Shown here: in pieces, positions 6,085 through 7,047 of the stretch
Layout of the letters: every line of letters starts with the position of its first letter
Numbering within the stretch: the stretch's first letter is position 1
DNA from: Escherichia coli
Lineage (GTDB): Bacteria; Pseudomonadota; Gammaproteobacteria; Enterobacterales; Enterobacteriaceae
Strand: one strand, 5' to 3'
Length of the DNA stretch: 64,000 nt
NCBI RefSeq assembly: GCF_024700885.2
Contig: NZ_CP117016.1
The notes under the pieces: model-generated
The model's input: only the letters and a program-made list of their open reading frames with translations
The model's database searches: none
What the model was told of the DNA's origin: nothing
Translations under genes and position numbers: made by a program

Positions 6085-7047
6085 ATGACCGAATCAACAA
6101 CCTCCTCCCCGCATGATGCGGTATTTAAAACCTTTATGTTCTCGCCCGATACGGCGCGAGATTTTCTCGAAATACATCTGCCAGAGCCGCTGCGCAAGCT
6201 TTGCAACCTGCAAACCTTACGCCTGGAACCCACCAGCTTTATTGAAAAAAGTTTACGCGCTTACTACTCGGATGTTTTGTGGTCGGTGGAAACCAGCGAC
6301 GGTGACGGCTATATCTACTGCGTGATTGAACATCAAAGTTCTGCAGAAAAGAATATGGCTTTTCGACTAATGCGCTATGCCACTGCCGCCATGCAACGTC
6401 ACCTGGATAAAGGCTATGACAGAGTTCCGCTGGTGGTGCCATTGCTGTTTTATCATGGCGAAACCTCGCCCTACCCGTACTCACTCAACTGGCTGGATGA
6501 GTTTGACGATCCGCAACTTGCCCGGCAGTTGTACACCGAAGCTTTTCCGTTGGTGGATATCACCATCGTACCTGACGATGAGATCATGCAACATCGGCGT
6601 ATAGCTCTGCTGGAACTGATTCAAAAGCATATTCGCGACCGCGATTTAATCGGTATGGTCGACAGGATTACCACGCTTTTGGTTAGAGGCTTCACTAATG
6701 ACAGCCAGCTACAAACGCTGTTTAATTATCTGCTGCAATGCGGCGATACCTCCCGTTTCACCCGTTTTATTGAGGAGATTGCCGAACGTTCACCACTACA
6801 AAAGGAGAGATTAATGACTATTGCTGAACGGCTGCGGCAGGAAGGACATCAAATTGGCTGGCAGGAAGGTAAATTAGAAGGCTGGCAGGAGGGGAAATTG
6901 GAGGGTTTGCAGAAAGGCAAAGTAGAAGGTATGCATGAACAAGCCATTAAAATTGCCTTGCGCATGCTGGAACAGGGCATTGATCGTGACCTGGTGCTCG
7001 CAGCCACCCAGCTAAGCGAAGCCGATCTGGCAGCGAATAACCACTAA
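6085..7047 (+). CDS. rpnB: Rpn-family recombination-promoting nuclease (YhgA-like PD-(D/E)XK transposase-like protein)
   Basis: 320-aa ORF; N-terminal YhgA-like region ([15 protein letters not shown]); C-terminal GxQxGKxEG repeats; position between glpC and rhmA matches yfaD. Symbol from memory of synteny. Confidence 0.85.
6814..7047 (+). CDS. Candidate nested in-frame small protein (RpnS-like, 77 aa) translated from an internal start within rpnB
   Basis: Internal ATG at 6814 preceded 4 nt upstream by AAAGGAGAGA (6801..6810), a far stronger SD than most true starts in this window; same frame and stop as rpnB. Confidence 0.45.
6856..6927 (+). repeat. 24-bp tandem repeat x3 encoding GWQEGKLE / GWQEGKLE / GLQKGKVE
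   Basis: ggctggcaggaaggtaaattagaa followed by ggctggcaggaggggaaattggag and a degenerate third copy. Confidence 0.85.

Follow-up and report, generated by a model that had tools for sequence, protein, structure and literature searches.

An in-frame four-residue repeat tract of variable copy number shared by the nuclease RpnE and its nested small protein in Escherichia coli

A short tandem repeat that lies within the coding sequence of a nuclease, and is read a second time in a small protein nested in that sequence, raises the question of whether its copy number varies among strains and, if so, what such variation would mean for the two products. This question was addressed on a 64,000 nt stretch of Escherichia coli DNA (contig NZ_CP117016.1 of assembly GCF_024700885.2), hereafter the window, in which the original prediction had placed three 24-bp units towards the C-terminus of an Rpn nuclease. 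Tandem Repeats Finder recovered the repeat at 6856-6929 as a 24 nt unit in 3.1 copies, with 76% matches, no indels and a score of 85, and across the whole window it was the sole tandem repeat scoring at least 50. Adjacent 24-mers identical at 20 or more of the 24 positions start at just four places in the window (6855-6858), each inside this repeat, and the 48 nt of the window with the best self-match at a lag of 24 are again the repeat itself. That the units resemble one another by chance is accordingly an explanation to which we give almost no credence, the repeat having no equal in the window and standing far clear of the background. The three units, GGCTGGCAGGAAGGTAAATTAGAA, GGCTGGCAGGAGGGGAAATTGGAG and GGTTTGCAGAAAGGCAAAGTAGAA, are in frame with the surrounding open reading frame and encode 24 aa, exactly the translation that had been claimed. 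Four of the 24 bases distinguish unit 1 from unit 2, each of them a synonymous change at a third position; as only 12 of the 72 single-base substitutions open to unit 1 would be synonymous, four out of four is expected with a probability of about 8e-4. This purely synonymous divergence argues that the copies are not brand new and that the encoded peptide was conserved. At lag 24, the longest stretch of exact identity in this allele measures 11 nt (GGCTGGCAGGA, at 6856 and 6880). On the minus strand, a 52 aa antisense open reading frame (6849-7007) spans the repeat and mirrors it as a 16-residue stretch; it is a by-product of the repeat and shows no sign of being a gene.

The gene that carries the repeat was identified from protein models, conserved residues and synteny. 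Its product scored 713.9 bits against the NCBIfam equivalog model for RpnE (NF007418, cutoff 583) and 172.5 bits against TIGR01784 (cutoff 52.1). Kingston et al. (2017; PMC5350276) mutated D11, D63, E82, Q84, R94 and D165 of RpnA, and all six residues are present here at the RpnA-equivalent positions, D165 within the PDDEI motif. The open reading frame is flanked by glpC and yfaU (rhmA), the order glpC-rpnE-yfaU was found in 22 genomes, and in strain 1190, which is 100% identical over the 361 nt query and has an equal gene layout, the gene carries the RefSeq name rpnE. The name RpnB given in the original prediction is wrong, because the RefSeq annotation of E. coli assigns rpnE to the position between glpC and yfaU and because Kingston et al. 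(2017; PMC5350276) defined RpnE as YfaD and RpnB as YfcI; the gene label is here corrected to rpnE, and the repeat was confirmed to lie in the C-terminal part of an Rpn nuclease. A tblastn search found no second rpn paralogue in the 64 kb window, and the comparison of C-termini was therefore limited to RpnA_S (PDB entry 7TH0) and to related protein clusters. The coordinates of all features are collected in Table 1.

Table 1. Features of the rpnE locus, in positions of the window
Feature	Positions	Strand	Basis or remark
rpnE (yfaD) coding sequence, RpnE_L of 320 aa plus stop, putative PD-(D/E)XK nuclease toxin	6085..7047	+	Open reading frame, NF007418, synteny
YhgA-like / Transposase_31 domain, aa 8-209, PD-(D/E)XK core and PDDEI motif	6106..6711	+	PF04754, E = 7.7e-88
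Shine-Dalgarno sequence AAGGAG for the internal start, 6 nt before the ATG	6802..6807	+	Sequence
RpnE_S, nested in frame, 77 aa ending ...AANNH, putative intragenic antitoxin	6814..7047	+	ATG at 6814, stop at 7045-7047
Hypervariable tract, seven xxxG units (28 aa), RpnE_S residues 12-39, inside helix 1	6847..6930	+	Sequence
3 x 24 nt tandem repeat, core of the tract	6856..6927	+	Tandem Repeats Finder; unique in the window
Non-repeat C-terminal part of RpnE_S, residues 38-75: end of helix 1, helices 2 and 3	6925..7038	+	phmmer to 7th0_A
Approximate junction at which two-module alleles carry roughly 180-210 nt extra (rpnE-type tail and ypaA head)	6957..6971	+	Global alignments
GC-rich hairpin, terminator-like, between the convergent rpnE and yfaU	7055..7081	.	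Consensus match, no more than in shuffled sequence

The surroundings of rpnE are metabolic genes (the glp and rhm operons), with no defence island. The PADLOC library returned only a match to the 'putative invertase' model C3a178 (E = 4.5e-5), which was rejected as confirmation of a defence system, since the match is weak and the model unrelated. Annotation of the gene and its neighbourhood is uneven in several respects. PGAP names the rpnE product 'ISNCY family transposase', and it often calls ypaA, a small gene that follows rpnE in many strains, a pseudogene ('hypothetical protein, missing N-terminus'), inconsistently with the literature, where ypaA is separately translated. Precomputed Pfam annotations place a second family, PF27070, on these proteins, while the local Pfam run gave the window protein without it; PF27070 may be a newer model of the Rpn C-terminal domain. 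In E. coli strain E105 (fetched locus L012, 1615-1862), the C-terminal end of rpnE differs (...LTEADLAPLSLQ), the rhm operon from yfaU onward is absent and yfaY lies next to rpnE, so that a breakpoint of deletion or recombination may lie at the right border of rpnE.

Much of what the repeat could mean is already laid out in the literature on Rpn proteins. All five rpn genes of E. coli produce a short form, RpnS, from an internal start (Zhong et al., 2023, PNAS; PMC10400941), and RpnS blocks the toxic nuclease RpnL, as was demonstrated for RpnA, RpnB and RpnP2, of which the plasmid-encoded RpnP2 protects from phages (PMC10400941). The crystal structure of RpnA_S is a dimer of three-helix bundles paired via the long first helix, and the main text of the same study reports that for all E. 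coli RpnS proteins the number of a 4 aa repeat in helix 1, the dimer interface, differs between strains (PMC10400941). When one extra repeat was added to RpnC_S or RpnC_L, neutralisation was lost unless both carried it (PMC10400941). The repeat in the window is this already published four-residue Rpn repeat; the original prediction had the biology right and the gene name wrong, and its reading of the domain as conflict-related agrees with the published interpretation of an anti-phage toxin–antitoxin system (PMC10400941).

The original prediction had also claimed that the repeat is common to a nested small protein, and the ribosome-binding motif and internal ATG of Table 1 point to such a product, RpnE_S, in which the tract begins at residue 12. 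In K-12, internal initiation within rpnE was detected by retapamulin ribosome profiling (bioRxiv 10.1101/520783) and by SPA tagging (PMC10400941), and the internal product is near-identical to that of the separate gene ypaA (bioRxiv 10.1101/520783; PMC10400941). For an internal promoter of RpnE_S, no sigma-70-like site was found in 5850-7150 by a scan that was simple and strict and hence uninformative.

Next to its sequence, the predicted fold of RpnE_S was compared with known structures. AlphaFold2, run on the monomer with 36 homologues, predicted helices at residues 3-53, 58-65 and 69-73 with a mean pLDDT of 79, and the whole tract (residues 12-39) falls into the one continuous helix 3-53, at a moderate tract pLDDT of about 70-79. 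Foldseek gave 7TH0 (RpnA-S) as the best PDB match, with a probability of 1.00 and a TM-score of 0.74 by target length, and a sequence profile matched 7TH0 with E = 4.1e-12, the match beginning just past the tract. By a phmmer match to 7th0_A, residues 38-75 of RpnE_S are homologous to the crystallised RpnA_S. The weaker Foldseek matches were DNA-binding helical domains such as the Mu transposase I-beta subdomain and TrpR-like proteins, and bear on a different reading, in which the tract would serve as a molecular ruler for DNA recognition, the length of the helix fixing how far apart, or in what orientation, the two nuclease or DNA-binding halves of a dimer of RpnE_L lie. An analogy with the TAEL repeat of EcoR124I and EcoR124II is drawn by Zhong et al., who also relate RpnS by HHpred to helix-turn-helix motifs (PMC10400941), and Kingston et al. 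proposed the variable tail as a determinant of DNA preference (PMC5350276). These DNA-binding matches, though, have E > 1, Rpn cleavage has no known sequence specificity, and the sole experiment on repeat number, that on RpnC, revealed an effect on the pairing of short and long forms (PMC10400941). We therefore hold the ruler to be quite improbable as the explanation of the tract, and note that it is compatible with a role in antitoxin pairing.

A further resemblance was noticed in the non-repeat part of the protein. Window positions 6925-7000 (RpnE_S residues 38-66), with the pattern GxxEEALxIAxxMLxxGIDxDxV, resemble the 35-residue PPR consensus of designer PPR proteins, and the corresponding PDB matches reached whole-protein E-values of 1e-34, yet only about 4-12 bits per repeat. 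Homology to PPR proteins was rejected, the total being inflated by about ten identical synthetic units and the shared pattern ('...GKxEEALxIAxxMLxxGIDxD') being that of a generic helix-turn-helix hairpin. The resemblance is probably that of a convergent helical hairpin.

Read directly from the DNA, the 24 nt repeat lies at the core of a longer tract, which counts seven xxxG units and has a glycine at each fourth residue. Two unit types, K[LIV]EG and [WL]QxG, alternate along the tract, and because of this alternation the self-identity of the tract DNA is 68% at lag 24 vs 37.5% at lag 12; the DNA therefore has a period of 24 nt, whereas that of the protein is 4 aa. Related protein clusters with 1-8 units, mostly 3-8, several of which are source-named Citrobacter or Salmonella, retain the glycine periodicity, and they keep a helix-compatible composition despite different unit sequences. 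Together with the purely synonymous divergence of units 1 and 2, this periodicity suggests that the peptide of the tract is under constraint. Models of FliH (NCBIfam/HMM) matched aa 205-289, the repeat region only, with E = 1e-7 and 21-31 bits against cutoffs of 180-293, and the Yae1_N model matched the tract with E = 7e-4 and 19.6 bits against a cutoff of 27.5. Homology to FliH or Yae1_N was rejected, as the scores are below the cutoffs and the matches come from the tract alone; the resemblance is compositional and structural.

The copy number of the tract was then followed through the species. By megablast with positions 6700-7060 as the query, 5,420 of 5,426 complete E. coli genomes matched, and 22 loci (L001-L022) were fetched. 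In these 22 loci, the rpnE tract has 2, 3, 4, 6, 7, 8, 10 or 12 units and the ypaA tract, where present, 2, 3, 4, 6 or 8 units, always in frame, and tract lengths differ by multiples of 12 nt throughout the rpnE and ypaA alleles. The strain-to-strain variation that had been predicted was thus observed, at 2-12 four-residue units in rpnE; the repeat number is not identical across E. coli. Unit frequencies were obtained from a systematic sample of 60 genomes, evenly spaced along the ranked list of the 5,420 matches, by converting match spans into units and checking these against the fetched loci. Two units were found in ~58% of the sampled genomes, 7 units in 12%, 10 units in 12% and 4 units in 10%, with 3, 6, 8 and 12 units rare; the 10-unit rpnE alleles belong to ST131-type strains. 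An on/off contingency repeat of the phase-variation kind might be suspected of any tandem repeat within a coding region, and the allele series already refutes it, all length differences being multiples of 12 nt that keep the frame; we assign it, like chance similarity of the units, practically no weight, and a frameshifting phase-variable locus was rejected, since the indels are of 12 or 24 nt and every allele stays in frame.

Single events could be seen in closely related loci. Over 2,971 nt, L008 is separated from L015 by a single SNP and an exact 24 nt duplication (KIEG-WQEG), and L022 has an rpnE tract equal to that of L008, one of the two having 8 ypaA units and the other 6. Between compared loci, eight of nine indels were of 24 nt and one was of 12 nt, and the 3-unit alleles look like a 12 nt deletion between TGCA microhomologies. 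The exact 24 nt duplication on a near-identical background of 3 kb fits slippage as a putative mechanism of the indels. In 15 two-module genomes, that is, genomes carrying both rpnE and ypaA, with 11 distinct combinations of unit numbers, the rpnE units never equalled the ypaA units (e.g. 2/3, 7/3, 10/6 and 12/6). A rule that the two are never equal was rejected: the chance of seeing no match, from the marginal frequencies, is ~0.47, and a read-through fusion has 2 + 2 units. This fusion is a 361 aa E. coli protein (P0001) in which the rpnE stop codon is changed to Gln, so that rpnE and ypaA form one protein with two tandem C-terminal modules.

The same variation might be no more than a neutral length polymorphism, that is, a segment of low complexity that is prone to slippage, in a paralogue that is decaying or inactive, with a copy number that has no effect on RpnE. 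RpnE showed no activity in any of the assays of Kingston et al. (recombination, toxicity and SOS; PMC5350276), the locus lies outside a defence context, the commonest allele among the 60 sampled genomes is the minimal 2-unit form, and length shifts on a near-identical background are expected of a mutational hot spot with or without selection. Neutrality, on the other hand, sits poorly with the four synonymous differences out of four between units 1 and 2, with the glycine at each fourth residue and the helix-compatible composition that related clusters keep, with the intact catalytic residues and internal start, and with the altered function that one added repeat brings about in the paralogue RpnC (PMC10400941). 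On balance we regard a neutral tract as unlikely. As to the inactivity in the assays of Kingston et al., RpnE_S and YpaA may have been co-expressed in their RpnE constructs.

The allele in the window is itself unusual. In K-12, rpnE encodes 299 aa with 2 units and is followed by ypaA, of 61 aa with 3 units, and ypaA (rpnE_Ss) likewise comes after rpnE in roughly half of the E. coli genomes sampled; the window allele has 7 units and no ypaA (7048-7087 compared with L001, 1786-2023). Alleles at least 99% identical to it were found in 26 of the 5,420 genomes that matched by megablast. Its rpnE tail of 15 aa is the ypaA type of two-module strains and not the rpnE-type tail (...TQLTDADIPNCH). In global alignments with two-module alleles that have a 7-unit-type tract, there is a single long gap, at 6971 against L007 and at 6957 against L010, and the sequence 3′ of it is free of mismatches to L007 and has one to L010, at 7002. 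Because of this single gap and the near absence of mismatches downstream of it, the window allele has the appearance of two modules that collapsed into one through exchange in a shared 12 aa region. Loss of ypaA by fusion of the N-terminal part of rpnE to a ypaA-type tail was already mentioned by Zhong et al. (PMC10400941).

Taken with the published work, these observations make it probable that the tract is a length-coded pairing helix common to the RpnE toxin and its nested antitoxin, and that in-frame indels in it alter the specificity of pairing. One stretch of DNA would be read twice, as the C-terminal domain of the 320 aa RpnE_L and as most of the 77 aa RpnE_S. The tract would lengthen the first helix of a small three-helix bundle, the helix that in the RpnA_S crystal is the dimer interface. 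Each 4 aa unit adds about one helical turn, so that the number of units would determine how long the pairing surface is and in what register it lies, and this length and register would in turn decide which short form binds and silences which long form. Since the same codons encode both products, an in-frame indel would change RpnE_L and RpnE_S together, and the pair would stay matched yet differ from other alleles and paralogues. The tract gains and loses mostly 24 nt, with steps of 12 nt now and then, and slipped-strand mispairing or unequal exchange between short direct repeats is the most plausible cause. The dependence of specificity on repeat number would hold for RpnE by extension from RpnC, the only Rpn in which it has been tested. 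Against the pairing-helix reading stand the inactivity of RpnE in the assays of Kingston et al. (PMC5350276) and its metabolic neighbourhood. We infer, too, that RpnE is toxic and has an anti-phage role, and that slippage is the mutational route.

A more far-reaching version of the pairing helix is tentative, and we would not expect it to hold in full: the tract would be a long GxxxG 'glycine-zipper' helix of the kind in FliH and in Yae1-Lto1, the mutational unit would be the 24 nt double unit instead of the published dodecamer, and ypaA would act as a recombination partner or cassette for chimeric C-termini, of which the 7-unit window allele with its ypaA-type tail would be one. If true, the glycine-zipper reading would link the hypervariability of Rpn proteins to a general code, in which partners are discriminated by the length of a GX3 repeat. 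GxxxG and FliH find no mention in Zhong et al. (PMC10400941), and a literature search found no paper that joins the Rpn tract with the FliH repeats.

For the most part, a published Rpn feature was here rediscovered independently from raw sequence, and no new kind of biology is involved. The additions are small, consisting of the 24 nt period and indels at rpnE, the FliH-like GxxxG resemblance and the rare single-module 7-unit allele. The allele series, with 2-12 units in rpnE and 2-8 in ypaA, can be used for testing whether RpnE has a repeat-number specificity like that of RpnC, and the mostly 24 nt steps at rpnE bear on the mechanism by which the 'dodecamer repeats' expand, which was left open by Zhong et al. 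in 2023 (PMC10400941).

The closest known system is that of RpnL and RpnS themselves (PMC10400941), with which RpnE shares the N-terminal PD-(D/E)XK domain, the internal start, the three-helix fold and the long first helix. In RpnL/RpnS the repeats start 8-20 residues past the internal Met, and the RpnE_S tract, from residue 12, falls in this range. What differs is the period of the rpnE DNA and the size of most of its indels, 24 nt vs the 'dodecamer' of the paper, and this is no categorical difference. In comparison with RpnE of K-12, which has 2 units plus ypaA, the window carries a rare form with 7 units and no ypaA. Outside the Rpn family, FliH/YscL (Trost and Moore, 2009; PMC2674601) and the deca-GX3 proteins Yae1/Lto1 (PF09811) likewise carry segments with a glycine at each fourth residue and an abundance of Glu, Gln and Lys, for which a helical structure is predicted and whose length changes from one homologue to the next, as in the rpnE tract. 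The glycine-repeat length of FliH ranges over m = 0-12 (PMC2674601); its variation is between species, whereas that of the rpnE tract is within one species, and the likeness is one of resemblance and not of homology. In the TAEL repeat of the HsdS subunits of EcoR124I and EcoR124II, as it is described in the part of Zhong et al. that deals with the analogy (PMC10400941), an in-frame change of a helical repeat of 12 nt or 4 aa alters the specificity of a nuclease system of phage conflict, as would be the case for the rpnE tract. By the same account, the TAEL repeat sets the length of the spacer in the DNA target, whereas the effect of the Rpn repeat, demonstrated for RpnC, is on the pairing of toxin and antitoxin.
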